This document shows positions 431 to 61,937 of a stretch of DNA of 64,000 bases, in pieces. The translations under genes were made by a program, and so were the position numbers. Position 1 is the stretch's first letter. Every line of letters starts with the position of its first letter. Source of the stretch: Candidatus Saccharimonadales bacterium. Its GTDB lineage: Bacteria; Patescibacteriota; Saccharimonadia; Saccharimonadales; UBA7683. Below the pieces are notes generated by a model. That model made no database searches and was not told the DNA's origin. It saw nothing but the letters and a program-made list of their open reading frames with translations. The DNA lies in contig JAXMAA010000001.1 in assembly GCA_046350615.1 (NCBI GenBank), forward strand, positions 72,480-136,479, read 5' to 3'.

Positions 431-496
431 GCTTATGTATTGTACCAAAGATCAGACCAGGATCAAAAAGATCCCTGCTCCTGTTTTTTTACAACT

Positions 497-724
497 TTAC
501 GTAATGCGGACAACACAGCCAACAACGGCGCATTTCCCACACTGCTGCGCGCGCTCATTTGCTGCTCGTGCAAGAATAGATTGGTGCAAGCCCTCTCGCC
601 CACCACAGCGCATTGCATCGTCTTCCACAATTACAGGGATCAGCTGATCCATAGCCCAGCGGTTATACTCAGGCGCATCGTCGTTGCCTTCAAAGGCGTC
701 TCCAAGATTAACCACTTCCGCCAT
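497..724 (-). CDS. hypothetical small protein (75 aa) with a Cys cluster, starting 4 nt after the sigma-factor stop
   Basis: From the ORF track. It has an acidic N-terminus and a QQCGKCAVVGC tail. Its ATG at 724 sits next to the TAG of the upstream gene at 728-730. I recognise no family. Confidence 0.35.
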   Translation of the reverse strand: MAEVVNLGDAFEGNDDAPEYNRWAMDQLIPVIVEDDAMRCGGREGLHQSILARAANERAQQCGKCAVVGCVVRIT

Positions 725-727
725 TCG

Positions 728-2479
728 CTAGAGCCTATCCACAACATACCATTCTACTGATTCGAAGCCGCTCTCCGGACCAACATACTTAAGCGCCTCG
801 GCAAATAAATCGGTAATATCGGGCACTTCCACCTCACTCGAAGCATAACGTGTAATAAGCTCTTCTAGAAACGCCTCCTGATCTGGCGTGAAGACGTACG
901 TCTCTGGTTCTTGTGATACTGCTTGTGCAGAATCTACTGTGTGCTCCGCTTTTGGCTCTGAGGGTTCGATGTGTTTACGAGGCACAGCGTATTTGTTTTG
1001 TAGCGCTTTTTGTAGCGCTGGCGAATTTGCCTCTCGCTCTGCAAGAATAAGCGCATACACTGCATTCTGCTCTTCTCGTCTCTGTCTAATCCACCCAACC
1101 TCGTATGCCGGATCAGGTAGTGCCCGTAGTTTTTCGATGAATTCATCGAGATACTGCGCAACCGCCGGTATGCGAACGTCTGGCGTACCACCAATAAGCT
1201 GACGATGCTTTCTAATATCAATGCCAGGAGCACCATCTTGCTGCACTTCACGCAGCAGGTCACAAAGCTGCGATGAAGGATCATCAGCAAGTACAAGCTC
1301 TATAAGCGAGCCAATAGGAAGCAGCCCTACATTATGTACGCAACCCTTTATTTGTTCGAGATAATCACCAAATGCATGTTCACGAGCCTGGAGAAGTTGT
1401 AGCCGCGTTCGAACGTTCGCCTCCTCTTCTTTTTTAATTGAGGTCGTCTGTGAGATGCGCGGCGCTTGTTGATCGTTTTTTGGAGATTCTAGCGACGGGA
1501 GTAGCTCAAGCGGATCACCAGACAGATGTTGTCGTGGTAATACGATGAATCGCATCTTAGTGAGAGCTTTAGCTTCAATCTGCCGCACTCGCTGCCCTGT
1601 GATACCGTGGGTCGCCCCAACTTCCGCAAGTGTCTTCGGTATACCATCCGCAAGACCGAAGCGGAGCTCGAGTATCTCACGCTCTCTCGTACTCAGAGAT
1701 TCTAGCAAAATCTGCATTCCTTCCTGCAAAACCAGTTCGTGCAGAATCTCATCCATCATTTCGCCGTGGGTGTTGGTAACATATGTCTCTTCTATATCGC
1801 CATCTACTGCCATTCGCCTTGTAGGCCTTCCTTCAAGATCAAAATACTCATACCGGGTACCAAAACCACCATCGAGTGAACGAATATGCGCAAATGTGTG
1901 ACCCACCGCCAACATACCCACGGTATCAAGATCACGCTGATCCGCAATTTCAAAAGGAGACGCTGACGGATTCGCACGCCTTGCACGATGATATTTCTGG
2001 GCAACATTCTCGGGTATGTGCACGAGGTAACCGTGCTGGTGAATAATTCTCTGCATTCGTCCTTGAATTCGAGGATACGCATGCGTTGAAAGTCGCGTGC
2101 CTCGCTCGGGGTCGTACGTCCAAATGGCCTCGCTCATGGCTGCCCATGCCTCTTGCTCTAAATCGCTCTTTTCAGCATACTTCAGATACGCTACATATTT
2201 ATTGGCAAAATAATACGCAAGAGGTGCGTGCAACTCCACAAGCTGTTTATGTGCATCAACGGCTTCGCTTGTTGCGTGTTTTTTATATAGTGTAAGGCGC
2301 TCATAGATCAATTCGTTCGGTAAAATATCAGCTTTATCCAGCGTGCGGTATTCATGCATTGCCGCTTCTCTATCAACACCGCCATCAACTATAGCGAAGA
2401 GTCTTTTGGTTTTTGCATCACGATAGACGTCGCTCTCAGGCGGACTGTTTAGGGTATTTTGTTCTGGTGTTTTCTTCAT
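728..2479 (-). CDS. RNA polymerase sigma-70 family factor with a long uncharacterised C-terminal extension (583 aa)
   Basis: Region 2 is present (DLEQEAWAAMSEAIWTYDPERGTRLSTHAYPRIQGRMQRII, YLVHIPENV), as is the region 4 HTH (REREILELRFGLADGIPKTLAEVGATHGITGQRVRQIEAKALTKMR). About 255 further residues follow that carry no motif I recognise. Confidence 0.8.
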   Translation of the reverse strand: MKKTPEQNTLNSPPESDVYRDAKTKRLFAIVDGGVDREAAMHEYRTLDKADILPNELIYERLTLYKKHATSEAVDAHKQLVELHAPLAYYFANKYVAYLKYAEKSDLEQEAWAAMSEAIWTYDPERGTRLSTHAYPRIQGRMQRIIHQHGYLVHIPENVAQKYHRARRANPSASPFEIADQRDLDTVGMLAVGHTFAHIRSLDGGFGTRYEYFDLEGRPTRRMAVDGDIEETYVTNTHGEMMDEILHELVLQEGMQILLESLSTREREILELRFGLADGIPKTLAEVGATHGITGQRVRQIEAKALTKMRFIVLPRQHLSGDPLELLPSLESPKNDQQAPRISQTTSIKKEEEANVRTRLQLLQAREHAFGDYLEQIKGCVHNVGLLPIGSLIELVLADDPSSQLCDLLREVQQDGAPGIDIRKHRQLIGGTPDVRIPAVAQYLDEFIEKLRALPDPAYEVGWIRQRREEQNAVYALILAEREANSPALQKALQNKYAVPRKHIEPSEPKAEHTVDSAQAVSQEPETYVFTPDQEAFLEELITRYASSEVEVPDITDLFAEALKYVGPESGFESVEWYVVDRL

Positions 2480-2507
2480 GTGCTCTTATTATAGCACATA
2501 TGCGTAA

Positions 2508-3566
2508 TTAACGCAAGAACGGGTCGAGATCGCCATCGAGTATTTTTTGTGCATCTTTTACTTCGAACTTGCTGCGGGTATCTTTCACCAATGTGTACGG
2601 ATGCAGTACGTAGTTACGAATTTGGTTGCCCCATGCGGCCTCTTGGTTGGGGCCTTTGAGTTCCGATATTCTTTCGGCATGTTGCTCCATTTGCAGTTGC
2701 GCTAGTTTTGAACGCAGAATCTTCATGGCAACCTCTTTATTCTGTATTTGCGATTTCTCATTTTGAATTGAGACCACAATATTTGTGGGAATATGTGTAA
2801 TACGCACCGCCGAATCGGTTGTGTTCACGCTTTGGCCGCCGTGCCCAGACGAACGATAGGTGTCAATTCTTAAGTCTTTCTCGTCAATCTCAACTTCATC
2901 AGGTGTATCAATTTGCGGCAGAACCTCGACCATCGCAAAACTTGTTTGACGCAGATTATCTGCATTAAATGGGCTCAGTCTGACTAAACGATGTACGCCG
3001 TGTTCTCCCTGCAATTTACCGAAAGCATTGACACCGCTGATTGAAACTACCGCCGATTTTATCCCAGCTTCATCACCAGTCGATTCTTCCAAAAGCTCGG
3101 CTTTATAGCCCGCTTTCTCAGCCCATCTCAAATACATCCGCAGCAACATTGCTGCCCAGTCCATAGCATCCACTCCTCCGGCCCCAGCCTGTAATCTGAG
3201 TACCGCATCGTGACCATCATATGGACCGTTATATTTTAGCTCCTGCTGCAACTCCTTATATTTCTCAAAAACGTGCTTAGACTGCGCTTCGATATCACTT
3301 TTAAGTGATACGTCATCTAACTCCGCCAGCTCTCTGAGATCTGAGATCTGAGACCTGAGGTCTGCCCAAGGCTGAACCGCCGCAGAAAGTTTCGCTTGCT
3401 GCTTAGAAAAATCCTGCGCCTGCAAGTTATCTTTCCAAACATCCGGATCTTCCAATTGCTTCGTAAGAGACGAGAGCTTTTCTACTTTTTCTGCCAAGCC
3501 CGCCTCTTGCCAAGCCGCTTCAAACTCACTCTGTAAATTCGTGATCTGTTTTTTCAACTCCTGCAT
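2508..3566 (-). CDS. prfB: peptide chain release factor 2
   Basis: It has the GGQ motif (SGHGGQSVNTTDSAVRITHIPT) and the RF2-specific SPF tripeptide (RLSPFNADNLRQTSFA). The frame is continuous, with no internal frameshift site. Confidence 0.95.
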   Translation of the reverse strand: MQELKKQITNLQSEFEAAWQEAGLAEKVEKLSSLTKQLEDPDVWKDNLQAQDFSKQQAKLSAAVQPWADLRSQISDLRELAELDDVSLKSDIEAQSKHVFEKYKELQQELKYNGPYDGHDAVLRLQAGAGGVDAMDWAAMLLRMYLRWAEKAGYKAELLEESTGDEAGIKSAVVSISGVNAFGKLQGEHGVHRLVRLSPFNADNLRQTSFAMVEVLPQIDTPDEVEIDEKDLRIDTYRSSGHGGQSVNTTDSAVRITHIPTNIVVSIQNEKSQIQNKEVAMKILRSKLAQLQMEQHAERISELKGPNQEAAWGNQIRNYVLHPYTLVKDTRSKFEVKDAQKILDGDLDPFLR

Positions 3567-3583
3567 GCTGCTAGTATACAGCC

Positions 3584-4876: not shown

Positions 4877-6159
4877 GCTAGCTCCCCCACCGCTGCCTTA
4901 AATTGTTCTCCGCGATCTTTAAAATCTTTAAACATATCAAAACTTGCACAACCTGGGCTGAGCAGCACAATATCTCCATCCGCACTTTCGCTAGCAGCTT
5001 TCTGAAGGATTTGAGGCATATCCATATCTGTTAAAATCTCGAACTTGTCAAACGTAGCTGTATCAAACGACCTGCCGATCGCCGCTGCCGTCTGACCAAT
5101 GAGTAACACTTTTTTGATATTTTGTTGTTCAGTAATGGCCGCTGTTAGCTCAGAATAATCAAGCCCCCTATCAAAACCTCCGCAAATGAGCACTATTGGC
5201 TGATCGAAAGAACGAATGGCCGCGACTGTTGCCCCTGGTGCGGAAGAAAAGCTATCGTTGTAATACGCCACACCTTTAATCTCATCAACGAACTCCAATC
5301 GATGCGGCAACCCCTTAAAGTTAGCGACTGCCGACCTAATGGCTCTTATATCCTGCGTGTAGCGCCACGCTGCAGTAACAGCCGCACAAACGTTTTCGAG
5401 GTTATGCGCGCCAATCAGACCGATATCTGAAGTACTGCAAACAACCTGGCCTTCAATGACAATATCCTGCCCGTTCACATAGGCTCCTTCGGGAGTGAAA
5501 AACTTTCTTTTCCCGGCAGCAGACCGCGTCGCAATCTCGGCGGCATACCGATTTGTCGGATGATAGATAAGTAAGTCTTCTGATTTTTGATGGGTGGTGA
5601 CATTCGCTTTAGCCGCTACATACTCATCCATCGAGGCGTGAACATCCATATGATCAGCCTCAATCATCAAAACCACCGCTATTTCGGGCGATTTCTCCAG
5701 ATCCCACAACTGAAAGCTCGAAAGTTCAAACACAACAATATCATCACCTTGAACCTGTTCAAGAATTTCAAGAGCCGGCAAACCAATATTGCCAACCAAG
5801 TGCACCGTTTTCCCGGCTGCTTTTAAAATTTCAGCAATGAGCGTTGATGCTGTACCTTTACCCTTTGTGCCTGTTACGCCAATAATCTGAGCCGGACATT
5901 TTGCAAAAAACTCATTCGTTGCCGACCAAACTTTACCATCAGTTTTAATTTTATCCGGCCGCAAACTCGCTGTCCGAATCACCATATCGTAGCCTTCTAG
6001 GCGCTCAAAAGCATCTGTACCAATAACACTATCTACCCCTCCAGGCAGTGGATGAGAAGGCATTTTTTCATCAAAAACAGTAACTTCGGCGCCTTTATCA
6101 AGCCAGTACTGGCAACTCGCCTCGCCCTCAACACCATAACCAGCAATCGCAACCTTCAT
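4873..6159 (-). CDS. murD: UDP-N-acetylmuramoyl-L-alanine--glutamate ligase (MurD family; D- versus L-Glu specificity undetermined)
   Basis: It has the Mur ligase P-loop IGVTGTKGKGTASTLIAEIL, an N-terminal Rossmann segment MKVAIAGYGVEG, and the overall MurD length and architecture. Confidence 0.85.
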   Translation of the reverse strand: MKVAIAGYGVEGEASCQYWLDKGAEVTVFDEKMPSHPLPGGVDSVIGTDAFERLEGYDMVIRTASLRPDKIKTDGKVWSATNEFFAKCPAQIIGVTGTKGKGTASTLIAEILKAAGKTVHLVGNIGLPALEILEQVQGDDIVVFELSSFQLWDLEKSPEIAVVLMIEADHMDVHASMDEYVAAKANVTTHQKSEDLLIYHPTNRYAAEIATRSAAGKRKFFTPEGAYVNGQDIVIEGQVVCSTSDIGLIGAHNLENVCAAVTAAWRYTQDIRAIRSAVANFKGLPHRLEFVDEIKGVAYYNDSFSSAPGATVAAIRSFDQPIVLICGGFDRGLDYSELTAAITEQQNIKKVLLIGQTAAAIGRSFDTATFDKFEILTDMDMPQILQKAASESADGDIVLLSPGCASFDMFKDFKDRGEQFKAAVGELA

Positions 6160-6199
6160 ACTTTAATTATATCCCACCTCAATCTCAATAAAAAATACC

Positions 6200-6229: not shown

Positions 6230-6736
6230 TTAATCAAAATGATGTGATCCGAATACGGGATGCGTAAGGCTGATCGCTACGAATCTGCCTATTTTTAATT
6301 CGGAAACAATATCAAGGAGCACATCTCGGTTATCGTGATCGCTCGCCCACACGCTTTTTTGTATTTGTTTAAAACGAAGCGCTTTGAGTTCTCTAACAAG
6401 CAATCTTCTTTGGTAATCATGTGATTGCGGGATGTCGAAAAGCACTAGTACATATCCACTTCTGAGTGGTGTGGCCTCAAGTTTTTTGAATCTCTCAATC
6501 AGTATCATCGCCTCATTCTCGAAATGAACTCGTGATCCGGTCAGCACCAATAAATTATCCTTTTTCGCTTTAACAAGTGCGTTCTTTAGGCTCGACTCAG
6601 CCTTGCCCGTTTTTTCAGCCAACTCTCTAAAAAACTGGCTAGGCTTAAAGGTTAGGTTAAGATTAGCATCGGAAAACGGAATCAAGGCTTCAATAACATA
6701 GCCAAGTGCACTCCCCTGTTTTATTCGCTTTGCCAT
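6230..6736 (-). CDS. PaaX-like / Cas2-fold domain protein (putative transcriptional regulator)
   Basis: The C-terminal half, YVLVLFDIPQSHDYQRRLLVRELKALRFKQIQKSVWAS, matches the Cas2/PaaX-type pattern (hhhhYDIp...R..h...L...Gf..hQ.SVW). The N-terminal part is winged-helix-like. Confidence 0.5.
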   Translation of the reverse strand: MAKRIKQGSALGYVIEALIPFSDANLNLTFKPSQFFRELAEKTGKAESSLKNALVKAKKDNLLVLTGSRVHFENEAMILIERFKKLEATPLRSGYVLVLFDIPQSHDYQRRLLVRELKALRFKQIQKSVWASDHDNRDVLLDIVSELKIGRFVAISLTHPVFGSHHFD

Positions 6737-6756
6737 ACCAAAAGCATACTATATTT

Positions 6757-6803: not shown

Positions 6804-8084
6804 TTACCAAAGCTTGGAGAGTTCGGCATGGAGATCGTCTACCAAGAGTTGTCCGCAATTGCCGAGGACGCCAAAATCCCAGAGGGCCTCTTGATGAAAT
6901 GCTCGGGCAATTTTAGTAACACGAGTGGTTGTGACCCCTTTTATGCGCTCTGGAACGCGATCGTAATCCATGATTTCACCAGTTAGCCCATATTCGTAAC
7001 TGTAGCCATTTAAGATACTGTTGGCCGTCTGAGCTCCCATCTGGAAGCTGCCGAGTGCGTAATTTTTAGCAGTTTTAAGCAGTTCTGGGGTGATGCCTCC
7101 ATCGAGGACTGTTTTAAGATGTTTAATAATCACTTGGATCGCTTTTGTTGCGTTTTCCGGACTTACCTGAAAATCAAAATCCCACACGCTGTAGTCGTGC
7201 CCCCTACTTCCTGAAGACCAGATGTAATATGCCAGACCTTTCTCGCGAATATCTCCAAGAACAAGCGAGTTCATGGTGCCAGTAAGAATATTGTTAAGTG
7301 CATTTAGAGCATCGATTTCTGCCTCCGAAATCCTACGTGGCAACAGCATACTAAAACTAACGTAAAGCGATTCAACTGTTTTATTTTCTATATAAAGCGG
7401 TCTGCCTGGCTTTTGTAATACGGTTTCTGGCAGCTCAATACGCTCGCCCTCTGGCAACACAAGCTTTCGCTCGATAATATGTTGTATCTGTTCACGCCTT
7501 CCCTTCAGATTTCCTGCTATAGCAAAACGAATGTTTTCAAGACTGTGTGTTTTTTGATAGTGCTTTTTAACATCTTGCACTGTAATATCCGAAAGCTTGT
7601 TAAGACGCGCCCGATCACCTTTTACCAAAAATCCAACGCGCTCTGAAAGTGCGATTCCGAGCTGGCGAAAATAATTACTCAGGTAACCAGTTAGCTCCTC
7701 TTTTACATTACCGATCTCAGCCTGAAACTCCTCTTGTAAAAAATGTGGCTGCGAGATTGAAAGCATTAACAGATTTAAAATTCGATCCCATTCAAAATCA
7801 GCGCATTCCCCCACATACCCCACATTGTAGGTATTAGTGTAAGCATTAGTGTAAGCCCCATTCTTCTTCACCTCTGCTTCAAACAGCCGAGCCTTGCGGA
7901 ACTCAGAGTTCGCCCCGCAGAGCAGATGCTCCATAACGTGTGGCGCCTCCCACTTACCCGATTCAGCAAGATAGTAACCAGCCCGCAAATTAAAATCATA
8001 GCTCATCACCTGCGCCTGCGGCACGTCAATAAGCAGGCCTTTCACGCCGTTTTTTAGTGTAATTTCACGAACTTTATGTTGCAT
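6804..8084 (-). CDS. M16 (pitrilysin/insulinase) family zinc peptidase
   Basis: It has the inverted zinc motif HxxEH (APHVMEHLLCGAN) near the N-terminus, and its ~425-aa two-lobed length fits M16. Confidence 0.8.
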   Translation of the reverse strand: MQHKVREITLKNGVKGLLIDVPQAQVMSYDFNLRAGYYLAESGKWEAPHVMEHLLCGANSEFRKARLFEAEVKKNGAYTNAYTNTYNVGYVGECADFEWDRILNLLMLSISQPHFLQEEFQAEIGNVKEELTGYLSNYFRQLGIALSERVGFLVKGDRARLNKLSDITVQDVKKHYQKTHSLENIRFAIAGNLKGRREQIQHIIERKLVLPEGERIELPETVLQKPGRPLYIENKTVESLYVSFSMLLPRRISEAEIDALNALNNILTGTMNSLVLGDIREKGLAYYIWSSGSRGHDYSVWDFDFQVSPENATKAIQVIIKHLKTVLDGGITPELLKTAKNYALGSFQMGAQTANSILNGYSYEYGLTGEIMDYDRVPERIKGVTTTRVTKIARAFHQEALWDFGVLGNCGQLLVDDLHAELSKLW

Positions 8085-8270
8085 ATATTACCTATTGTAC
8101 CTGCAAACCCCGAAAGGTTCTATAAAATTAGAAATGTTCGGTTGGGTGACGTGCGAGCCTTGGCGCGGTTCCATCCTAATACCGCCTCAGTATCTTTACT
8201 TTCTTTCCATTCGTACCATCAATAGCTCAGGCTGCATCTTGAACCTTTCGGACAAATCGCCGTGTGTAAT

Positions 8271-15141: not shown

Positions 15142-15522
15142 CTATATTTGATCTTCAGACTGTTGACGGGAGCGGCGGAAGCGACGCAGGATGCCGCGGT
15201 GATCTTGTTTATCGCCACCGTGAGAGGCTTTGTATTTACGGAGTTGATTCTTAATTTTGGTTTCAACAATATCAATTGCGGCAAACATATTTACTGTTGA
15301 TTGCTTGGCCGTAACCTGCTGCTCAGGCAGATGCACAATAATTTCACATTGATTTCGATCACTCTTCGTCTTAAGTTCAGAGAGCTTTACTTCAACATGC
15401 ATCGATTTACGAGCATGGCGGGGTACGAATCGGTCAAGCCGACCAACTTTTTTAGTAACATACTTTTTTAAATCGTCGCTGACTTCGTAATGTATTCCTG
15501 AGATCTCGATATGTGAAATCAT
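15142..15522 (-). CDS. hpf: ribosome hibernation promoting factor (short HPF/RaiA)
   Basis: The sequence MISHIEISGIHYEVSDDLKKYVTKKVGRLDRF...VEVKL...AAIDIVETKIKNQLRKYK is typical of HPF. A strong SD, AAGGAGGG, precedes the start. Confidence 0.9.
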   Translation of the reverse strand: MISHIEISGIHYEVSDDLKKYVTKKVGRLDRFVPRHARKSMHVEVKLSELKTKSDRNQCEIIVHLPEQQVTAKQSTVNMFAAIDIVETKIKNQLRKYKASHGGDKQDHRGILRRFRRSRQQSEDQI

Positions 15523-15602
15523 CTACCCTCCTTTTGTTTGCACTCATATTATACCTTAGATTAGAGCTTAGTTCTGAGTTCTTAGATCTTAGAGGAACAC
15601 TT

Positions 15603-20688: not shown

Positions 20689-22677
20689 CTACTTCCAGAG
20701 TTGGAAATTTTTAGTAATTTCTTTGAGCTCATCTGATTTTCCGAACAACGCCAGTGCCCAGAAATCAACATCTTCAATAGCAGTTTTCTTGAGTAGTTCC
20801 ATCTCCTCTTTTGAAGAGCCGATGGTCATAGTTTCGACAAAGGCGTTGTTAGGTAAACTAAGTTTCTGGGCCTTTTTGTAAGCTTTTAGCAGCTCTTTGG
20901 AGTTCGCTGCTTTAAAAATAATGGCCGGATGATGTGCGATGATTACATCAAGCTCACCAGTTTTGTCTTGATATTCAAGAAAATCAAATCGACCGGGGTT
21001 ATGCATTGTACCCACCAGGCCCGCAACCGCATGATTGGCGGCGTTAATAAGCCTGCCGGTTTCAACGCCTTCTTTAAGAATTACCACCATCTGATAGGCT
21101 AGGCGATGCTCTTCGCTCATAAGCTCACTTGTTGGCGAAAGCGTATTTGGCCGGCGAGTGCTACCATGGCTTAACTGAACCTCTGGATAGATAGCTTTGG
21201 TAACCTCGTCAATCTCAGCTCTGAGCTGCGGGAATGGCACCCCTTCGCGTGCTGTTACACCTTCAAAAATCCAAAACACTCTTTCGGAAAAACCAAGTCC
21301 ACATGCAGGTGGCATACCGTATTCAAGCATTTCCACGTAGTCGATATCGAGCATTTGCGCCTCATCATCACCAGCATCGCGCATTTTTTGCTGTTCCAAG
21401 AAACGATTAAGCTGATCAACCGGGTCATTCAGCTCACTCCAACCGTTACATAGTTCGCTACCGCCAATGACTGCCTGAAATCGCTGCACAAAATGAGGGT
21501 TAGTATCATCCGCTTTACTGAGGGGAGAAATAAATGTTGGTGTGTTAATAAGCCAGACTGGACCAGCCACGGTTGCACGAACCCTCTTCCAGAGCTTATC
21601 AATACCGCGCGAAATATTCTCAGTTTTTTCTACTTCGAGCCCGTGCTTCTTCAGTGCGGCCTTCACTTCGTCGATTGTGCAGTCGAACACCTCGATACCG
21701 TAATGTTCGCGAATAACGGTCGCATAATCCCATCGCTCCCACGGTTTGCTCATATCAATTTCTTGGCCGTCGAGAGTAAACTGCAGAGTACCGAATGCTT
21801 CTTGCAGCACTTTTTTGAACATCTCCTCCATGAATACCATGCCATCTTGCCAGTCTGCATATGCCCAGTACCATTCCATTGCAATATGCTCCGGTAAATG
21901 TTCATCCGAGTAGTTCTCGTTTCGAAAACGTGGACCAATATCAAAGACTTTTTCATACCCAGCGCCAATCAAGCGCTTTAAGGGTAGCTCGTGTGAAATA
22001 CGAAGGTAAAAATCTTGATTCAAAGCGTCCATGTGCGTTACAAATGGATTCGCATCGGCGCCGCCGGTAGTATGCTCCAGCACTGGAATATTAATTTCCG
22101 TAAAATCATTGTTCAGAAGAAAATCGCGTGTTGCCTGCCAAAACTTTGAGCGTCGAATGAATCGTTGGCGAACATCTTCATTGACGTTCATGTCCACGTA
22201 GCGCCGACGCATGCGCTCCTCTTTATTCGTAAAGCCGTCTTGTGCTGTGGGCATTGGTCGAAGCGATTTAGTCAAAAGCCGCAAATTCTGCACATCAATT
22301 GAAATCTCACCAGTTTTGCTTTTTATAATTGGTCCTGTTGCCTCAATAAAATCACCTCCATCCAGAAGATTGAGATGCTCAAGTCCAATAAAGCCGGCCT
22401 GAGGATTTGTGGGCCGCACTCCGCCATCTTTCAAGAAGAGCTGTACCTGCCCTGATGCATCCTTCAAAACTATGAAGGCAAGTTTGCCAAACTTACGAAT
22501 GCCGATAATTCTGCCTGCAACCGTCGCTATTTGGTCTTCTAAGACATCAAACTTAGCAATAACGTCACCCATCATATGGGTTCGGTTCGATTTTGCGGGG
22601 TACGGGTTAAGGCCCAGCTTTTTTAGCTCTCCCAGTTTTCTTAGGCGCTCATCGCGCAGTTCTTTCAAGTTCGCCAT
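20689..22677 (-). CDS. lysS: lysine--tRNA ligase (class II) with a ~145-aa C-terminal DUF2000/PTH2-like extension
   Basis: The N-terminus has the OB anticodon-binding domain (VAGRIIGIRKFGKLAFIVLKDASGQVQLF) and the class II core (FRNE, GGSELCNGWSELNDP, GLGFSERV). About 145 extra residues follow. Confidence 0.9.
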   Translation of the reverse strand: MANLKELRDERLRKLGELKKLGLNPYPAKSNRTHMMGDVIAKFDVLEDQIATVAGRIIGIRKFGKLAFIVLKDASGQVQLFLKDGGVRPTNPQAGFIGLEHLNLLDGGDFIEATGPIIKSKTGEISIDVQNLRLLTKSLRPMPTAQDGFTNKEERMRRRYVDMNVNEDVRQRFIRRSKFWQATRDFLLNNDFTEINIPVLEHTTGGADANPFVTHMDALNQDFYLRISHELPLKRLIGAGYEKVFDIGPRFRNENYSDEHLPEHIAMEWYWAYADWQDGMVFMEEMFKKVLQEAFGTLQFTLDGQEIDMSKPWERWDYATVIREHYGIEVFDCTIDEVKAALKKHGLEVEKTENISRGIDKLWKRVRATVAGPVWLINTPTFISPLSKADDTNPHFVQRFQAVIGGSELCNGWSELNDPVDQLNRFLEQQKMRDAGDDEAQMLDIDYVEMLEYGMPPACGLGFSERVFWIFEGVTAREGVPFPQLRAEIDEVTKAIYPEVQLSHGSTRRPNTLSPTSELMSEEHRLAYQMVVILKEGVETGRLINAANHAVAGLVGTMHNPGRFDFLEYQDKTGELDVIIAHHPAIIFKAANSKELLKAYKKAQKLSLPNNAFVETMTIGSSKEEMELLKKTAIEDVDFWALALFGKSDELKEITKNFQLWK

Positions 22678-22683
22678 ATAGTC

Positions 22684-23121
22684 CTATTCTACCACTGTTC
22701 TGATGAAATCAGAAAGTCCAATGAATACACCAAGATGCATGTGAGTTGGTTCTTCGCGAGGCATAACATGGCCAAGAATATCCCACTTAGTCCACGACCC
22801 TTCACCAAAGTGCGCATGCAAACAATCATATGTATCATACGCAAATTTCCTCATTTCATGGTTATTGGAGCCAACATCACCAACACCAGCAACAACAGGC
22901 CCTGGTAACCGAAATGGGAAATCAACAGTGCTATCCAAAAGCGGCATAGCCTCATTTTCAACAATAAACTCCCCGACTCTATAAAGCTTACTGAGTGGTG
23001 ATGTAACTGCTTCGAGCATTGCAGACCTAATTGCTTCATCGCGTTGCATAGAAACGGGTATTCCCCTTTTTACAGCGCCAGGATTCGGCGGCAATACAAT
23101 CACGTGTTCAATATTTTTCAT
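22684..23121 (-). CDS. hypothetical protein (145 aa from MKNIEHV)
   Basis: From the ORF track; I prefer the ATG at 23121. No family is recognised. A C-terminal HMHLG resembles a degenerate HIT-like motif, but I do not rely on it. Confidence 0.5.
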   Translation of the reverse strand: MKNIEHVIVLPPNPGAVKRGIPVSMQRDEAIRSAMLEAVTSPLSKLYRVGEFIVENEAMPLLDSTVDFPFRLPGPVVAGVGDVGSNNHEMRKFAYDTYDCLHAHFGEGSWTKWDILGHVMPREEPTHMHLGVFIGLSDFIRTVVE

Positions 23122-26871: not shown

Positions 26872-26981
26872 AATTACATTTTAACATATTTTTGTTAAAA
26901 CATATTAAAAAATTATTCGTATATTTACACAAATTTTATATGCTGAGTGTAGAGGTTTAGCACCTCAAAGGAGTTACGATT

Positions 26982-33208: not shown

Positions 33209-33237
33209 GAATACTAGTATATAGGGAATTGTGGCGA

Positions 33238-35709: not shown

Positions 35710-35758
35710 TCAAGCTCCTTTAACTAGCCCCATTATAACAGATAGGTGAGCTTCAGAT

Positions 35759-36004: not shown

Positions 36005-36266
36005 CTATGACCTTTTGCAGGAGCGTCATAAATGTTTCAGCTGGCATACCGCCACTTGGCAGATTACTAAAATCTGCCACAGTTTGCCAGTTTTCGCTCA
36101 CTGGATCGCCCCATTCATCCAGTTTCGCTTTTCTGATTTTTTCCAACAAAGCCTGACGAATAATATCACTTCTGGAAGTGTAATCACGCTTCGCCAAGGC
36201 ATCCACTCTCTTGAGCAGTCCTTTTGGCAACGTAATATTAACCGTCTGACTTTGTGTACTTTTCAT
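35958..36266 (-). CDS. ribbon-helix-helix (CopG-type) antitoxin
   Basis: The RHH motif is VNITLPKGLLKRVDALAKRDYTSRSDIIRQALLEKI. It lies directly upstream of the toxin and overlaps it. Confidence 0.75.
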   Translation of the reverse strand: MKSTQSQTVNITLPKGLLKRVDALAKRDYTSRSDIIRQALLEKIRKAKLDEWGDPVSENWQTVADFSNLPSGGMPAETFMTLLQKVIDEQERKSTPQTSLKD

Positions 36267-36299
36267 ACATAAAATGTATCATATACATATATTTTATGT
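36267..36299 (-). promoter_or_regulatory. nested palindrome (ACATAAAAT-N15-ATTTTATGT) abutting the antitoxin start; candidate TA operator/promoter
   Basis: It is a 9-bp inverted repeat with an inner GTATcatATAC palindrome. A TATGAT -10-like box lies 11 nt upstream of the ATG. Confidence 0.4.
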
Positions 36300-37254: not shown

Positions 37255-37278
37255 AAAGTTAATTGTAACAGATTATAT

Positions 37279-38807: not shown

Positions 38808-39239
38808 CTACTTACCGATAGAACGAGCACTAATAATCACACCAAACCCCGCTGCGAGGAGTATCAGACCAAAAAATTGTAAGCTGGAAACTTTTTCTTT
38901 AAAAATAAAGTAGCTTGCGATAGTTGAGAGAAAGATCGCACCGCCGAACACGATTGGTGCAACAATCCCTACCTTATTTACCGTGTAGGCCTTGTTAATT
39001 GCCATCACAAAAAAAGCGATCGAGACACCGCCCAGCATCGCAAAAACAATTCCGCTTTTACTATTTACGAATAGTTTTTTACCCAGCAACGGAATAACTG
39101 CCGCTATTGGCACCACTGCGGAAATCAAGTTAGTAATTGCAGCAGCAAGATTAGTGTTGGCATTTCTGGAAGCTGCGACTCCAAACATAATACCAATCGC
39201 ATAAAAAACCATCGCGAGAAGAATATATACCATTACCAT
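38808..39239 (-). CDS. small multi-TM membrane protein, EamA/DMT-like transporter half
   Basis: The 143-aa protein has 4-5 hydrophobic helices and a pattern resembling the EamA domain. Confidence 0.5.
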   Translation of the reverse strand: MVMVYILLAMVFYAIGIMFGVAASRNANTNLAAAITNLISAVVPIAAVIPLLGKKLFVNSKSGIVFAMLGGVSIAFFVMAINKAYTVNKVGIVAPIVFGGAIFLSTIASYFIFKEKVSSLQFFGLILLAAGFGVIISARSIGK

Positions 39240-39363
39240 AACTGTAGCAGATTGCTAACTAAATAACATCCGTGGAATAACCAGATATTTTCACGAGCTT
39301 AAGATGGTGTATTAAAATGGTTGGTGTTTTAAGGTTCGGGTAGAATTAAACGCCTGAAATGTA

Positions 39364-44222: not shown

Positions 44223-44283
44223 TATGTTCTATCAATTGTTATGGGGCTATACACACACCTCTGTTAACTGTATACTACACACT

Positions 44284-45336
44284 ATGGAAGCAGAACAGAA
44301 ATTACGAACTGAATTTGCCGAACTTACTGAAGCTCTGAGTGCGCCGGATGCGTTTTCTGACCCTAAAATCGGTGAGAAGAATCGGCGGCGAGCGGAGCTT
44401 GAGGAAATTGTAACTGCATTTGACGAAAAGCACTCGTTTGAAGCGCAGCTCGAGCAGGCAAGCGAACTGCTACGCGGTAACGATAACGAGCTTTCTGAAC
44501 TTGCAAAACTTGAAATTCCCGAACTGGAAGCAAAGATTGCCGCAAATGAAGAAAAGCTTACCGAACTTCTTACGCCGAAAGATCCGAATGATCATAAAAA
44601 CTGTGTGATTGAAATTCGAGCCGGTGCAGGTGGTGACGAGGCTGGTCTATTTGTGGCAGAGCTACTCAGAATGTATCTACGTTACTGCGAAACTCACAAC
44701 TTAAAAACCGAGATTATGAGTGAAAACACTAACGATGCTGGCGGCTACAAAGAAGTTATCTTCATGGTTCGCGGTGAAGATGCTTACAAACAATTGAAGT
44801 TTGAAGGTGGTGTTCATCGTGTGCAGCGTGTGCCAGCTACTGAAAGCCAAGGCCGCATTCATACCTCAACTGTTACCGTTGCTGTTATGCCCGAAGCCGA
44901 AGAGACTGACATCGATATTAAAGAGGCTGATTTAAAAATTGATACTTACCGCGCCTCTGGCCACGGCGGTCAAAGCGTGAACACCACTGATTCAGCCGTA
45001 CGTATCACTCACCTGCCCTCTGGTATTGTAGTGACTAATCAGGATGAAAAATCTCAAATTAAAAATAAACTTAAGGCTATGAGCGTGCTTCGTTCTCGGC
45101 TACTCCAAAAGCAAATTGATGAGGAAAATGCCAAGCTTTCAGCTCAACGCAAATCACTTATTGGCTCTGGGGATAGATCAGAGAAAATCCGTACTTATAA
45201 CTTTCCGCAAGATCGCATTACCGACCACCGGGTCAATTACTCCCGCTCAAGCATTCCACAAGCCATGAACGGCGATATTGATGATATCATCGCCAAACTC
45301 CAGTCGTACGAGAACCAACTCTTAAGGGAAGCTTAG
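44284..45336 (+). CDS. prfA: peptide chain release factor 1
   Basis: It has the PxT tripeptide (RVQRVPATESQGRIHTS) and GGQ (SGHGGQSVNTTDSAVRITHLPS). The ATG at 44284 lies 7 nt after a TATACT box. Confidence 0.95.
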   Translation: MEAEQKLRTEFAELTEALSAPDAFSDPKIGEKNRRRAELEEIVTAFDEKHSFEAQLEQASELLRGNDNELSELAKLEIPELEAKIAANEEKLTELLTPKDPNDHKNCVIEIRAGAGGDEAGLFVAELLRMYLRYCETHNLKTEIMSENTNDAGGYKEVIFMVRGEDAYKQLKFEGGVHRVQRVPATESQGRIHTSTVTVAVMPEAEETDIDIKEADLKIDTYRASGHGGQSVNTTDSAVRITHLPSGIVVTNQDEKSQIKNKLKAMSVLRSRLLQKQIDEENAKLSAQRKSLIGSGDRSEKIRTYNFPQDRITDHRVNYSRSSIPQAMNGDIDDIIAKLQSYENQLLREA

Positions 45337-46385: not shown

Positions 46386-46441
46386 TATGTATATTTTATT
46401 GCATGGATATTTATTATTTCTCCTGTTATACTCTATTGTCA

Positions 46442-47230
46442 ATGGATACCATCATCGCCAGTTTAGCTAATCCGAAGATTAAATGGGTAAAAGGCCTGCA
46501 TAAAAACAGTAGCCGTCGAAAAGAGGGTGTATTCTTAGTTGAGGGCGCAAAAGAGATTGCCAGCGCTTTAAGTGGCGGTTATATACCGCGACATGTCTTT
46601 GTCTGCCCGGAGATTTATGCCGAGGAACTAGTACTGAAGGGGGTAGCCCCTCGGATTCACACAGTCAATAGAGAGGTCTTTCAAAAAATTACTTACAGGG
46701 GTAGTTCTGATGGAATTCTGGCTATATTTGATGCCACACAAAAAACACTTGATGACCTAGAGCTTGGAAATACACCTTCATTTATTATCGTCGAAGGAAT
46801 TGAAAAACCGGGAAATCTTGGCGCAATCATTCGAAGCGCTGACGGTGCAGATATTGATGCAGTTATTGTCTGTAACTCAACCTGCGACATATTCAATCCA
46901 AATGTCATCCGAGCTAGTCTTGGAACGGTATTCACGAAACAGGTTGTAACAGCAAGTAATGAACAGGTGTCCGACTTCCTCGCTAAACACGAAATTACCA
47001 CTTACTCTGCATTGCTTTCGGAAAGATCCTCTGCATATACTGCAGTAGATTTTACGATACCTACGGCCATTGTTCTTGGCACCGAACACGATGGCCTAAG
47101 CGAATTCTGGCAACAACGAAGTATTCCAGTAGTTATTCCAATGCGCGGAAGTAATGACTCCCTCAATGTAAGTAACGCAGCAGCGATCCTTGCTTACGAG
47201 ATAGTCAGACAACGAGACCTACTCACATGA
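46442..47230 (+). CDS. TrmH/SpoU family RNA 2'-O-methyltransferase (RlmB-like)
   Basis: Supporting motifs are EGIEKPGNLGAIIRSADGADIDAVIV, LGTEHDGLS and IPMRGSNDSLNVSNAAAILAYE. Confidence 0.88.
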   Translation: MDTIIASLANPKIKWVKGLHKNSSRRKEGVFLVEGAKEIASALSGGYIPRHVFVCPEIYAEELVLKGVAPRIHTVNREVFQKITYRGSSDGILAIFDATQKTLDDLELGNTPSFIIVEGIEKPGNLGAIIRSADGADIDAVIVCNSTCDIFNPNVIRASLGTVFTKQVVTASNEQVSDFLAKHEITTYSALLSERSSAYTAVDFTIPTAIVLGTEHDGLSEFWQQRSIPVVIPMRGSNDSLNVSNAAAILAYEIVRQRDLLT

Positions 47231-51973: not shown

Positions 51974-52075
51974 AAATTACTTCTGCTTAGTATAACCATA
52001 TTACCAAAGCGGGTAAAGGGTGCGCTGAGATGAAAAGCTGTCCTCTCACCTAAATTACTGCTATACTTTAGCCAT

Positions 52076-52840
52076 ATGCAAGATGATCCTAACCAACCTA
52101 TCGTAGAAAATGGAAATAACGCCAGCCCGGAAATAACGCCAGCCAGCACACCAGCTCAACCAGTTGTGGCACCTCAAGCCGCACCCAACACCCAACCAAC
52201 CCCGGCAGGCACTACACCTGAGGTAAATAGCGCTCCTCGGCAAGCCCCAACACTACCCGAGACTGCTCCTGAAAAACCAAAAAAAGAGGGTGGCCTCTTT
52301 TCATTCGTTGGTACTCTGATTGCAGCTTTTATCCTTGTACAAATTATCAATCTCTTTCTTTTTCAGAGCTACAAGGTATTCGGCAGTAGCATGTTCCCAA
52401 CACTCCACGATGGTGATCGTTTAATTATTTCTAAGGTCGGGAAAACCGGCGCAAGACTGCAGGGCAAAAACTATCTTCCAAAACGGGGCGACATTATTGT
52501 GTTTATTGACCCGCAACGTTCAGATCTACAGCTTATTAAGCGTGTTATCGGCTTACCGGGCGAACGTGTTGTGGTAAAAGATGGCACATTAACCGTTTAT
52601 AATAGCGAAAAACCTCAAGGGTTCAGGCCCGACGATGCCGACTACGGCAAGAATCTTCCTCGAACCAGCGGAGAAACCGATGTAACTGTGCCAAAAGATC
52701 ACATCTTTGTAAGTGGTGATAACCGCGAAGGCAGCAATTCACTTGATTCCCGTAATGAACTTGGCACCGTTCCCGAAGAGCTCATCATCGGCACCCTGCA
52801 AGTCCGCGTCTGGCCACTCGATAGCGCTAAGTTCTTTTAG
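52076..52840 (+). CDS. lepB: signal peptidase I
   Basis: S26 boxes are present: GSSMFPTLHDGDRLII, IKRVIGLPGERV and GDNREGSNSLDSR. Confidence 0.92.
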   Translation: MQDDPNQPIVENGNNASPEITPASTPAQPVVAPQAAPNTQPTPAGTTPEVNSAPRQAPTLPETAPEKPKKEGGLFSFVGTLIAAFILVQIINLFLFQSYKVFGSSMFPTLHDGDRLIISKVGKTGARLQGKNYLPKRGDIIVFIDPQRSDLQLIKRVIGLPGERVVVKDGTLTVYNSEKPQGFRPDDADYGKNLPRTSGETDVTVPKDHIFVSGDNREGSNSLDSRNELGTVPEELIIGTLQVRVWPLDSAKFF

Positions 52841-53956: not shown

Positions 53957-54724
53957 TCATAATCGCTCCATCACCTCTTTCGTCAGTGCCTTATAAGCTC
54001 TTGCCCCTTTACTCCATTTATCGTACTCGCCCACTGGCTTTCCGTGACTCGGGGCCTCAGCCACCCTAATATTACGCGGAACTGTTGTTTCGAACAAACG
54101 ATTCTTAAAGTGTTTCCTCAGCTGTTCTTCTACCTGAGCGGAAAGCGTCGTACGCGAATTATGCATGGTCATAACAACCCCCAATATTGCAAGCCGCGGA
54201 TTGAGCACCTTTCGCACCAGCTTCATAGTCTCCAAAAGTTGACCCAGCCCTTCAAGTGCATAGTATTCAGTTTGCACAGGAATGATCACAGATTGTGCAG
54301 CCACTAAAGCGTTAACTGTCAATAAACCAAGGCTCGGCGGACAATCGATAATAACCACATCAAACTGAGCCTCCGCTAATACCTGCTTCAAGCGAATTGC
54401 ACGATCTTTCGCCGTAGCGATCTCTGTTTCAAGTGTCGCCAGCTCGGCATCCGTGCACAGCAGTGAAAGATGCTCATACTTTGAAGCCTGCACAGCATCA
54501 GCCAAGCCCACCTTTTTGGCAAGCACGTCGCGCGTGGTACTTCCATTTTTTTCAAACCCGAGCCCACTCGTGGCATTCCCCTGCGGGTCGAGATCAACCA
54601 GCAGCACACTTTTACCCTCTTTTGCCAAATTATAAGCAACGTTCACAGCAGTGGTCGTTTTACCAACGCCCCCTTTCTGGTTTGTAACCGCTATGACACT
54701 CGCCATGTTTTGATTTTCCTCCAA
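53957..54724 (-). CDS. parA: chromosome partitioning ATPase ParA/Soj
   Basis: It has the deviant Walker A IAVTNQKGGVGKTTTAVN, plus VIIDCPPSLG. Confidence 0.94.
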   Translation of the reverse strand: MEENQNMASVIAVTNQKGGVGKTTTAVNVAYNLAKEGKSVLLVDLDPQGNATSGLGFEKNGSTTRDVLAKKVGLADAVQASKYEHLSLLCTDAELATLETEIATAKDRAIRLKQVLAEAQFDVVIIDCPPSLGLLTVNALVAAQSVIIPVQTEYYALEGLGQLLETMKLVRKVLNPRLAILGVVMTMHNSRTTLSAQVEEQLRKHFKNRLFETTVPRNIRVAEAPSHGKPVGEYDKWSKGARAYKALTKEVMERL

Positions 54725-54816
54725 ATCTACCCTTCATTATACAGTAAAAACACGAAGAAAAACGAGCCTTTCAGCCCGTCTCTATTTGCTATTTGCTGTT
54801 ATCTAGTATCTGATCA

Positions 54817-55336: not shown

Positions 55337-56473
55337 CTATTCGCACTGTTCATATAACTTTCCGAGCGCCCGTACGTCATCTCCGACAATACAGGTCTCG
55401 TCTATTTCACCTACCCTGTTTTGCAGCATTCCAAAAATAAGATTATTCTGTGGGTCTCTTGAAAGGAGCCGAAGTTTCTCTACAGCTACGGCAGGGAGCA
55501 TGTCGTACAACGGTACAACGCCAGCCTCACGAAGTGCAACAGACGTTTCATACTTCCGTAGATCAGTGGGCTCACCAGTTTCAGTCACTCCAAAAAACAC
55601 CACTCCTTTCTCTTTGCGGAGTTTTTCCACCAGCTCGGCCACAGACTGGCTCGGCGTAAGAGTATTAGCCGTTCCTGAATGGTAAAGGATCAATAATACC
55701 GCCTGTACATCGTGCGCCTGCACATAATCAAGCAACTCTTGATGATCCGATCTTATAGTATTTACTCCATAGACACACACCTCCTGTGGCTGGCCTTTAC
55801 AGTCGGTCACTACTTCTCGTAGGTCTTTAATGAGCTTATCTGCCACAGACTGCTGTGTGGCAACAGCCTCTTGATACTCTTGACTATTTTTTGAAACAAA
55901 AGTTGAAGCTCCATTAATATAGGGAATTTTTACAACTTCATTCGCTGGTATAAGCCTATCGTGAAAAGCTACATACACACCGCCCTGCTCTCCAGAATCA
56001 AAGCTTCTAAGTGCGAACTCTAGATTGCCCCAGGCATCAGTATTGGGATGATCAAGATTTTCATTTGATGCTGTAATGATCACTTTTTTGTCGTGTTCTC
56101 TCGCATATTCACCAAACATCTCATGGAACAATAGTGCCGTCTGCTCCAAGCTATCAGTGCCATGCGAAACAAGAACACCATCAGATTCTTCTCCTGCAAT
56201 ACTTATACCTACTTGCTCCGCTATGTGCAGCTGGTCTTCGCGTGTCAGATTCTCGCTAAGTCCCGTGTAAACAAAAGCTCGAGCACCTATTTCAATTCCT
56301 AGAGTTGCCGTGGTATCAGAATGTTCTTTGAGTAGTACTATAAGATCTTGCTCATGTCCACCTTCTCGGTGACCAGCATCTGTAGTGATTGAGGATATCG
56401 TTCCACCGGCATACACGACTTCAATTCTTGGAAGAGGTCTGTCCAGTTCACCAATTTTCTGGGTTGGATCCAT
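55337..56473 (-). CDS. L-asparaginase family protein (type I / GatD-like)
   Basis: It has the N-terminal VVYAGGTISS threonine motif and VLVSHGTDSLEQTALLF (HGTDT box). Confidence 0.75.
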   Translation of the reverse strand: MDPTQKIGELDRPLPRIEVVYAGGTISSITTDAGHREGGHEQDLIVLLKEHSDTTATLGIEIGARAFVYTGLSENLTREDQLHIAEQVGISIAGEESDGVLVSHGTDSLEQTALLFHEMFGEYAREHDKKVIITASNENLDHPNTDAWGNLEFALRSFDSGEQGGVYVAFHDRLIPANEVVKIPYINGASTFVSKNSQEYQEAVATQQSVADKLIKDLREVVTDCKGQPQEVCVYGVNTIRSDHQELLDYVQAHDVQAVLLILYHSGTANTLTPSQSVAELVEKLRKEKGVVFFGVTETGEPTDLRKYETSVALREAGVVPLYDMLPAVAVEKLRLLSRDPQNNLIFGMLQNRVGEIDETCIVGDDVRALGKLYEQCE

Positions 56474-56513
56474 CTTTTCATTATAGCATATTATATGCTA
56501 TTTTATCAATATC

Positions 56514-61187: not shown

Positions 61188-61407
61188 TGTTTCCTTTCGT
61201 GAATAAAATAAAATCACTTCTTTTGACTGCCAGAACCCTTGGTTTCAATTTCCATGCTACTTGCTGCATGTTCCTTGCTACCTGAAATGGGCGGTACCAT
61301 CTGGCTTCCAAAAGAAGTGATTTATCCTCCGAAGCTTTATGCGAAGGAGGGTTCTTTTAGCACTTAGTTGCTGCTATAACGGGCTTACCCGAGAGGTTCT
61401 ACTTTCT

Positions 61408-61444
61408 GATCCAGATCCTTCGATTTACGCTCAGGATGACAAAA
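61408..61444. repeat. repeat-family member GATCCAGATCCTTCGatttaCGCTCAGGATGACAAAAC
   Basis: It has the same CAGGATGACAA tail as 37889-37959 and 56907-56975. Confidence 0.6.
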
Positions 61445-61581
61445 CAGAGTTCTTCCTCTTCCGTTCTCGTACGAGATCGCAGCTGATAACTGCTCAAACG
61501 GATATATGCTTATAGTACTCGTTTACAGATGAAAAGGCAATATTAAAGACTATACTACCTCGCTAGCGAGAATAAGAACTA

Positions 61582-61610
61582 AATTCCTGATCGAGCCGGG
61601 AATGACAAAG
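61582..61610. repeat. repeat-family member AATTCCTGATCGAGCCGGGAATGACAAAG
   Basis: It is near-identical in layout to 31398-31424. Confidence 0.7.
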
Positions 61611-61617
61611 GCACGGG

Positions 61618-61878
61618 TTAGTTATAAAAGCTAAGCTCGGAGATTGTGGGCCACTTACTGCGTTCTTGCCAGATTTCGATGAATGATCCATCTTCTCGCA
61701 TCGCAATAATGGCTGGGAATTGGACAACATCGTAGAGCCGAGCAACTTGTACGCCGGAAACCGTGGTGCTATCAATTAGCTCGATCGAGCGGCCTGTTTC
61801 ACGTTCAAACTCGCGTATGTACGCCTGCACCGAAGTCTCGCCTTCACTGTTTGGTCGATAAAGAATAACCGTTTTCAT
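61618..61878 (-). CDS. thioredoxin/glutaredoxin-fold small protein lacking the CxxC motif (NrdH-like position downstream of nrdJ)
   Basis: The 86-aa protein reads MKTVILYRPNSEGETSVQAYIREF...FPAIIAM. It has a beta-alpha-beta Trx-fold pattern but no cysteine at all. Confidence 0.5.
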   Translation of the reverse strand: MKTVILYRPNSEGETSVQAYIREFERETGRSIELIDSTTVSGVQVARLYDVVQFPAIIAMREDGSFIEIWQERSKWPTISELSFYN

Positions 61879-61937
61879 TCATTCAAGTATAACAGAGTTA
61901 GATGGTGGATCTTAGCTATCAGGGCCTGGTAAAAGGA

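Follow-up and report, generated by a model that had tools for sequence, protein, structure and literature searches.

We analysed a 64,000-nucleotide stretch of contig JAXMAA010000001.1 (the window, in whose positions all coordinates below are given), and found that a −10-like hexamer recurs 6-9 nucleotides (nt) upstream of the start codons of many of its genes. This arrangement is best explained, with high probability in our view, by σ70-type extended −10 promoters that abut the coding sequence and produce leaderless or near-leaderless mRNAs. Such promoters (TGnTAnAAT or TAYAMT, their −35 element being weak or absent) would start transcription at the A of the AUG or within 0-3 nt of it, and the resulting mRNA would begin with the AUG or with at most 1-3 extra bases, with no room for a Shine-Dalgarno (SD) sequence. 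Translation would then be of the leaderless kind, with direct recognition of a 5'-terminal AUG by ribosome and initiator tRNA. About 14-17 of the roughly 60 window genes, around a quarter of them and roughly every third gene that opens a transcription unit, would be expressed in this way, while most of the others would have very short leaders (about 16-23 nt) with a canonical AGGAG-type SD, and a few would have A-rich leaders lacking an SD. The same dual system would operate throughout Saccharibacteria. What the analysis shows is the motif together with its geometry, statistics and conservation and its mutual exclusion with SDs; from these we infer that the transcription start site (TSS) coincides with the AUG and that translation proceeds without an SD.

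The organism belongs to Saccharibacteria (TM7) in the Candidate Phyla Radiation (CPR)/Patescibacteria, and its ultrasmall genome is a metagenome-assembled genome (MAG) of Candidatus Saccharimonadales. The sigma-factor protein encoded at 728-2479 is 100% identical to an NCBI protein of this MAG, and 20 further window proteins occur residue for residue in its NCBI annotation (accessions in the MFO09708xx range, locus tags U0520_00xxx). The GC content of the window is 46% with a strongly negative GC skew, and the − strand carries about 52 of the 60 genes. Scans with Rfam and for tRNAs found no RNA genes in the window, so it holds no 16S 3' end from which the anti-SD could be read.

Hexamers abutting start codons in the window

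The first-pass annotation of this stretch had pointed to 11 TAnAnT hexamers with spacers of 6-9 nt before ATG starts, where the spacer is the number of nt between the end of the hexamer and the ATG. All 11 are exact as described, eight lying on the − strand and those of prfA, the SpoU gene and lepB on the + strand. It had also held that no SD lies between hexamer and start, and indeed none of the 11 genes has an SD of at least 5 nt; the only SD-like 4-mers inside spacers are AGGT (M16 peptidase gene) and AGGA (lysS). By reading all upstream regions we added six cases, namely, murD, lysS, a TrmB-like gene, a ribbon-helix-helix (RHH) gene, an EamA-like gene and, weakly, a PaaX/Cas2-like gene, giving 17 cases (14 strong, 3 weaker) among the roughly 60 genes, about 47 of which are possibly first in their transcription unit. 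The start codon is ATG in 17/17 cases, and spacers of 6-8 nt predominate. With curated starts, TANNNT occurs at spacers 6-9 in 20 of 60 genes, and the strict hexamer TA[TCG]A[AC]T does so in 13 genes, compared with 11 matches over the 31 positions 10-40 (Poisson p=4e-9), and never at spacers 4, 5, 12 or 13.

Could such a pattern arise by chance, through AT-rich intergenic DNA and starts picked for a nearby −10-like hexamer? TANNNT is common, with 1,969 copies in the window, and the cases of the first-pass annotation had been chosen by eye. To guard against circularity, we called genes with a motif-blind pipeline, taking stop-to-stop open reading frames (ORFs) of at least 100 amino acids (aa), greedy non-overlap and the first ATG of each. 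The strict hexamer still lies 6-9 nt before the ATG in 9 of these 56 genes, where the positional background predicts 0.94 (p=6.6e-7) and 200 shuffles average 0.76 (maximum 4), an approximately 10-fold excess over both nulls. A count that is free of gene models points the same way: 22 of the 144 strict hexamers in the window have their next ATG at 6-9 nt, and in 12 of the 22 an ORF of at least 80 aa begins at that ATG. The identical pipeline returned 0/83 on two stretches of Escherichia coli K-12, and the starts in question are backed by full-length profiles, orthologs and NCBI annotation. Given the spacer distribution, the motif-blind result and the lineage-wide peak (next section), we rejected an artefact of chance or composition, to which we leave a negligible probability.

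Most sites lie on the − strand; in what follows, the first residue aligned and the corresponding profile position are given as residue→position for full-length NCBIfam profiles. The ftsE site (428..447) consists of TGGTACAAT at 439-447, 8 nt from ATG 430 (FtsE 1→1). For the sigma-70 family factor (2477..2496), TGCTATAAT at 2488-2496 is followed after 8 nt by ATG 2479, which has an in-frame stop 6 nt upstream and is identical to the NCBI start. In prfB (3564..3578), TATACT at 3573-3578 lies 6 nt from ATG 3566 (PrfB 9→2; NCBI start identical), so that this promoter sits in the 17-nt gap behind a murL-like gene. The new murD site (6157..6171) has TATAAT at 6166-6171 and 6 nt before ATG 6159 (MurD 2→1; NCBI start identical), and the weak new candidate at the PaaX/Cas2-like 168-aa gene (6734..6751) has TAGTAT at 6746-6751 and 9 nt before ATG 6736. 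The M16 (pitrilysin-family) peptidase gene (8082..8099) carries TACAAT at 8094-8099, 9 nt from ATG 8084, with an in-frame stop 3 nt upstream and the identical NCBI start. Also new are lysS (22675..22694; TGGTAGAAT at 22686-22694, 8 nt, ATG 22677; LysS 6→2) and the TrmB-like helix-turn-helix gene (26869..26886; TGTTAAAAT at 26878-26886, 6 nt, ATG 26871). At rseP (33206..33221), TATACT at 33216-33221 precedes ATG 33208 by 7 nt (RseP 8→13). The RHH/HicB-like gene (36264..36281), another addition, has TGATACATT at 36273-36281 and 6 nt before ATG 36266, with TTGACA 18 nt upstream.

Further along this strand, the APH-like phosphotransferase gene (37252..37270) shows TGTTACAAT at 37262-37270, 7 nt from ATG 37254, and the new site at the EamA-like membrane protein gene (39231..39249) shows TGCTACAGT at 39241-39249, 7 nt from ATG 39233, which is the second ATG of the ORF. 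The asparaginase gene (56471..56488) combines TGCTATAAT at 56480-56488, 6 nt before ATG 56473, with a TTGATA −35 at 18 nt, and an 86-aa hypothetical gene (61876..61894) has TGTTATACT at 61886-61894 and 7 nt before ATG 61878. The three + strand sites are those of prfA (44271..44286; TATACT at 44271-44276, 7 nt, ATG 44284; PrfA 6→3), of the SpoU/RlmB-type methyltransferase gene (46424..46444; TGTTATACT at 46424-46432, 9 nt, ATG 46442) and of lepB, encoding signal peptidase I (52059..52078; TGCTATACT at 52059-52067, 8 nt, ATG 52076). Family profiles bear out most of the gene labels proposed earlier, that is, FtsE, PrfB, PrfA, RseP, SpoU-type methyltransferase, signal peptidase I, asparaginase, M16 and sigma-70 family; the label 'kinase-like' retains a marginal APH-family match only, and the 'Trx-like' label of the 86-aa gene has neither a family match nor a CxxC motif behind it.

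Several of these genes show features of their own. In the sigma-70 family protein (728-2479; 583 aa), no regions other than 2 and 4 are detectable and the C-terminus is extended by about 270 aa; its nearest relative among 5.8 billion proteins searched shares 33% identity over 38% of the length. LysS (20689-22677, −) has 662 aa, with a C-terminus reaching about 175 aa beyond the LysS profile, while the members of its 90%-identity cluster have 503-506 aa. A programmed +1 frameshift is present in prfB of many bacteria; here prfB (2508-3566, −) is one uninterrupted ORF matching the RF2 profile from position 2, with no sign of such a frameshift. Next after murD, and overlapping it by 4 nt, comes a MurL-like gene (UDP-MurNAc-L-Ala-L-Glu epimerase; below the family cut-off; pair at 3584-6159, −), which suggests that D-Glu for peptidoglycan is supplied by an L-Glu-then-epimerise route.

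The start codons proposed for these genes find indirect support in three sources. The full-length profiles align from residues 1-9 of the proteins; the orthologs in related loci have their start at the corresponding ATG; and NCBI lists the same protein for each of the 16 complete candidates, including the 141-aa form of the EamA-like protein that was predicted from the −10 element. In several genes an in-frame stop lies 3-6 nt from the ATG, and therefore no start further upstream is possible there. On these grounds (profile alignments, orthologs and NCBI annotation), misassignment of start codons was rejected. Outside the 17 cases, tsf (37279-37893, −) starts at ATG 37875, which has the SD GAGGAG, falls at profile position 2 and gives the 198-aa NCBI form, rather than at the first ATG, 37893. 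The Tsf protein is unusually short, with 198 aa against a profile of 293 positions.

Probable promoter character and lineage-wide distribution of the element

We collected 80 Saccharibacteria loci (1.43 Mb in total) by a PrfA scan of species-representative genomes, the PrfA proteins being 65-92% identical, and kept a non-redundant set of 40 loci after dropping near-duplicates. An initial scan for relatives with patterns from the sigma factor had returned none, because the patterns fell in its variable N-terminus. Over all genes called in the 80 loci, the strict hexamer occurs 48, 82, 69, 59 and 65 times at spacers 6, 7, 8, 9 and 10, respectively, against about 1-5 times at neighbouring spacers. 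In the 40 loci, 106 of 717 genes have it at 6-9 nt, against 12.9 expected (p≈1e-58), and 138 of 717 (19%) have it at 6-10 nt; at least one case is present in 39 of the 40 loci, with a median of 18% of genes. The peak covers spacers 6-10, with zero or near-zero counts at 3-5 and 12-16. Thus the distance distribution that the first-pass annotation had proposed to plot shows, in the window and in the 40 related loci, a sharp peak at 6-9(-10) nt over composition-matched and positional nulls, and none in E. coli. As a positive control, the megaplasmid of Deinococcus radiodurans has the loose TANNNT at 5-11 nt in 7 of 41 genes with annotated starts.

The hexamer often carries a TGn extension, as noted in the first pass: TGn stands directly 5' of it in 11 of the 17 window cases, compared with 8% of all TANNNT (p=7e-9), and the corresponding values in the related loci taken as one lineage set, to which the figures in the rest of this paragraph also refer, are 49% and 16%. 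The −10 signal is depleted within operons, being found in 4% of genes at same-strand gaps of at most 10 nt versus 23% of other genes (p=5e-9); it reaches 12-38% at larger gaps, and 25% of divergent genes carry it. The coupling of the peak to SD absence, which had been predicted, is strong, with the −10 signal and an SD 5-mer co-occurring 3 times against 40 expected (p=7e-19). The peak exists for ATG only; there is none for GTG, TTG or CTG starts, and GTG is used after SDs (44 GTG vs 156 ATG; p=0.001).

The −35 element is weak, its best match mostly reaching 3-4 of 6 positions in the window cases. A generic scan for two-hexamer σ70 −35/−10 promoters is likewise not enriched in the window over shuffles (27 vs 30.7), which makes it uninformative here and counts against the promoter call, so that this call rests on the −10/TGn element and its position, not on the −35. 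Taken together, the weak −35 and the scan without enrichment indicate that these promoters are of the extended −10 type.

Genes led by an SD form the contrast class, and their presence beside the leaderless-type genes agrees with the earlier view that the organism uses both modes; AGGAG/GGAGG peaks 4-9 nt before the ATG. The labels of the SD-led genes used for comparison in the first-pass annotation (HPF, Frr, GreA and SerS) were all confirmed. TGnTATAAT/TATACT also occurs 22-29 nt upstream of SD-led genes, all of the following being on the − strand: hpf (15520..15553; TATAAT at 15548-15553, 25 nt with AAGGAGG, ATG 15522; a short SD-bearing leader), frr (35707..35740; TGTTATAAT at 35732-35740, 22 nt with AAGGAG, ATG 35709), proS (30631..30664; TAGTACAAT at 30656-30664, 22 nt with AGAGGGA, ATG 30633) and a 249-aa gene (54704..54743; TGTATAAT at 54736-54743, 29 nt with GGAGG, ATG 54706), which we take to be parA, no family search having been run on it; a 391-aa gene shows the same arrangement. 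A −10 at 22-29 nt would give leaders of about 16-23 nt with AAGGAG-type SDs. In the 80 loci there are smaller bumps of the strict −10 at 23-28 nt and 35-36 nt from starts, partly inflated by near-duplicates, which fit the view that the SD-bearing leaders of Saccharibacteria are uniformly very short. Two genes without family matches, 42905-44161 and 45333-46325 (both −), have strong promoters about 31 nt upstream, TTGACA-17-TAAAAT and TTGACA-17-TATTAT, respectively, both with TG, and their leaders are A-rich and devoid of an SD. Such A-rich non-SD leaders are a smaller third initiation class beside the leaderless and SD-led ones.

These distributions also bear on whether the TA-rich hexamer might act in the mRNA, as a non-SD ribosome-binding or enhancer element of the Bacteroidetes or S1-dependent A/U-rich type, in transcripts that start further upstream. 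That some candidates lie 6-28 nt from an upstream co-directional gene with no intervening terminator would suit this explanation, as would the reduced ribosomes and short S1 proteins of CPR bacteria (PMC9297842). A translation signal should, however, also occur at operon-internal genes, where the hexamer is nearly absent; moreover, the invariant T-A...T pattern and the TGn extension are marks of σ70 promoters, the same motif stands 22-29 nt upstream of genes with their own SD, its distance to the start is sharply bounded (zero at 4-5 and 12-13 nt in the window), and it is accompanied by the pyrimidine/purine signature described below. The operon-internal depletion and the promoter features led us to reject an mRNA-level A/U-rich element, which we regard as very improbable.

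Probable transcription starts, movement between modes and neighbouring genes

For extended −10 promoters that abut the coding sequence, the remaining question is where the mRNA begins. A pyrimidine occupies position −1 in 77% of cases (63% having T) versus 51% for SD-led genes (p=3e-7), with enrichment at all spacers, and beside it stands a purine at +1, the A of the ATG. RNA polymerase prefers a pyrimidine at −1 and a purine at +1. A pyrimidine at −1 has no obvious translational meaning, and the signature suggests that the polymerase preference is at work and that the A of the ATG is the preferred +1. Spacers of 6-10 nt place this A 7-11 nt past the −10 element.

A variant in which the promoters are real and the TSS lies a few bases further upstream, giving mini-leaders of 1-5 nt that are still translated independently of an SD, is a possibility to be taken seriously, though we hold it to be clearly the less probable one. 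In published data, transcription starts cluster around a point 7 bp past the −10 (PMC12641261), and in the lineage set spacers of 8, 9 and 10 nt account for 36, 44 and 34 sites, compared with 26 and 32 for spacers of 6 and 7 nt; prfA has a spacer of 9-10 nt in 53 of the 80 loci. Yet the spacers of the window itself are mostly 6-8 nt, the −1 pyrimidine adjoins the A of the ATG whatever the spacer, and functionally, leaders of at most 5 nt are usually classed as leaderless.

Several points weigh against strictly leaderless expression from abutting promoters. The coincidence of +1 with the AUG is, in this organism, read from DNA sequence. Spacers of 8-10 nt, which are common in relatives (especially 9-10 nt in prfA), could give leaders of 1-4 nt. 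The genes lysS, prfB, the kinase-like phosphotransferase gene and the sigma gene lie 6-28 nt behind a co-directional gene with no terminator, so read-through transcripts of these four are probable; they are probably also expressed as SD-less internal cistrons, and the leaderless mRNA need not be their sole one. Finally, the agreement with NCBI starts is only partly independent, because NCBI's gene finder itself models leaderless promoters (PMC6028130). The claim of the first-pass annotation that a sizeable share of transcription units is leaderless nevertheless finds support in all of the computational tests proposed with it.

The element is retained in orthologs to varying degrees. A TGnTATAAT-like −10 stands 7-10 nt from the ATG of prfA in about 67 of the 80 loci, although the flanks have diverged, and a few loci have an SD-like leader instead. 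A −10 is present at 8-11 nt in 11/11 orthologous loci of lysS, and TGnTATACT at 8-9 nt in 3/3 orthologs of lepB. In one related locus (L006), the ortholog of the APH-like phosphotransferase gene has TGCTATGAT with a spacer of 7 nt, and that of the EamA-like gene has TGTTACAAT with the same spacer. By contrast, rseP is of leaderless type in the window and in the closest relative (L002), but in 46 of 50 other loci it lies inside an operon and is led by an SD, and the SpoU gene has a −10 in 2 of 7 orthologous loci, its orthologs beginning at the equivalent ATG. Since rseP and the SpoU gene differ in mode among loci, individual genes move between the leaderless and SD-led modes over evolutionary time. 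Such movement has been described for other phyla (PMC3160421).

The remainder of the window contains a few further regions of note. The segment 11768-15040 is a GC-rich island (53% vs about 45-47% elsewhere) that holds an IS30-family transposase (14003-15040, −) and a 584-aa ORF (11768-13522, −) with no match in NCBIfam (Pfam was not run), and is probably a mobile insertion. secA is present as two ORFs (8855-11448, −) with an ATGA overlap, 9574-11448 covering positions 2 to about 590 of the SecA profile and 8855-9577 covering 605-812, which might reflect a frameshift, a fault in the assembly or a gene that is genuinely split. Similarly, uppS consists of two overlapping ORFs (33391-34087, −), 33755-34087 matching profile positions 1-102 and 33391-33819 matching 89-228, which suggests a frameshift or pseudogene. 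A type IV secretion apparatus has been described for Patescibacteria, and an 859-aa protein at 39712-42291 (+), with a weak match to TraD/VirD4-type coupling proteins, may belong to it.

Relation to known leaderless systems and significance

Leaderless genes are well known in Actinobacteria and Deinococcus. Those with a −10 just upstream have been termed 'TA-led' (Zheng et al., PMC3160421), and group C of GeneMarkS-2 comprises genomes, mainly of Actinobacteria and Deinococcus-Thermus, with a Pribnow box about 6-10 nt from first-in-operon starts in 25-50% of operons (PMC6028130). In mycobacteria, about one quarter of transcripts are leaderless by experiment, a proportion close to the present one, and their leaderless 5' ends carry either ATG or GTG (PMC4633059). 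The present genes resemble the TA-led/group C type in having a −10 about 6-10 nt before first-in-operon starts, with no SD there and SDs on internal and leadered genes, and in the share involved, about 20-25% of genes or 25-50% of operons (PMC6028130, PMC3160421, PMC4633059). The Deinococcus megaplasmid gives the same picture with the same script. They differ in lineage, which here is Saccharibacteria (CPR/Patescibacteria), and, compared with high-GC Actinobacteria and their minimal TANNNT, in a −10 that is nearly the full TATAAT/TATACT, often with TGn, because the GC content of these genomes is moderate (42-52%). Unlike in mycobacteria, the peak is confined to ATG.

Comparison with other systems is also instructive. 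The TG one base 5' of the hexamer in 11/17 cases and the weak or absent −35 are shared with extended −10 σ70 promoters; distinctive of the window is the systematic use of the element, butted against the start codon. In such promoters sigma region 3.0 contacts the TG; the window's only sigma factor, which may or may not be the housekeeping one, has no detectable region 3. The leaderless genes of archaea (GeneMarkS-2 group D) likewise lack an SD and have mRNAs starting at the start codon, as we propose here, but their TATA/BRE lies about 26 nt upstream (PMC6028130), in contrast to a bacterial −10 at 6-10 nt. The Bacteroidetes non-SD ribosome-binding site (group B) is also an A/T-rich motif just 5' of starts without an SD, but it precedes all genes including operon-internal ones (PMC6028130), whereas the present motif avoids internal genes and canonical SDs occur elsewhere.

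A full-text literature search, which did not extend to the genome table of GeneMarkS-2 group C, returned no paper that describes leaderless mRNAs or mapped TSSs in Saccharibacteria or CPR, and none of the papers searched counts this lineage among those rich in leaderless genes. The sole Saccharibacteria TSS set found comprises 188 sites of TM7x that had been inferred from RNA-seq coverage, with leaders not discussed, and the TM7x transcriptome preprint makes no mention of untranslated regions or promoters. The pattern, which extends across Saccharibacteria, is a clear-cut further example of an expression mode already known; it does not represent a new mechanism. We tentatively raise a broader idea, which we consider rather unlikely as a whole: all Saccharibacteria, and perhaps the wider CPR/Patescibacteria, may share leaderless initiation driven by extended −10 promoters as an ancient trait, one tied to reduced ribosomes (short S1, missing ribosomal proteins), divergent sigmas and leaderless-rich actinobacterial hosts. 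The data cover the Saccharibacteria-wide part of this idea, and its links to ribosome reduction, other CPR and hosts are speculation. If true, the match to the expression mode of the hosts could ease gene exchange or reflect shared constraints.

In practical terms, the −10/ATG geometry provides a simple rule for fixing start codons in Saccharibacteria, as for the EamA-like gene (39233) and the SpoU gene (46442), and the leaderless geometry explains the absence of SDs from many Saccharibacteria genes. Genetics in cultivated Saccharibacteria has become feasible only recently, and compact native expression signals are suggested for it by our analysis, either TGnTATAAT followed by 6-8 nt and ATG, or the same −10 with a leader of about 20 nt containing AAGGAG. 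With these results a major, poorly studied lineage would join the bacteria that rely heavily on leaderless translation, one in which individual genes flip modes, as does rseP, of leaderless type in the window and SD-led in most relatives. This would bear on the evolution of translation initiation and on how reduced ribosomes initiate.

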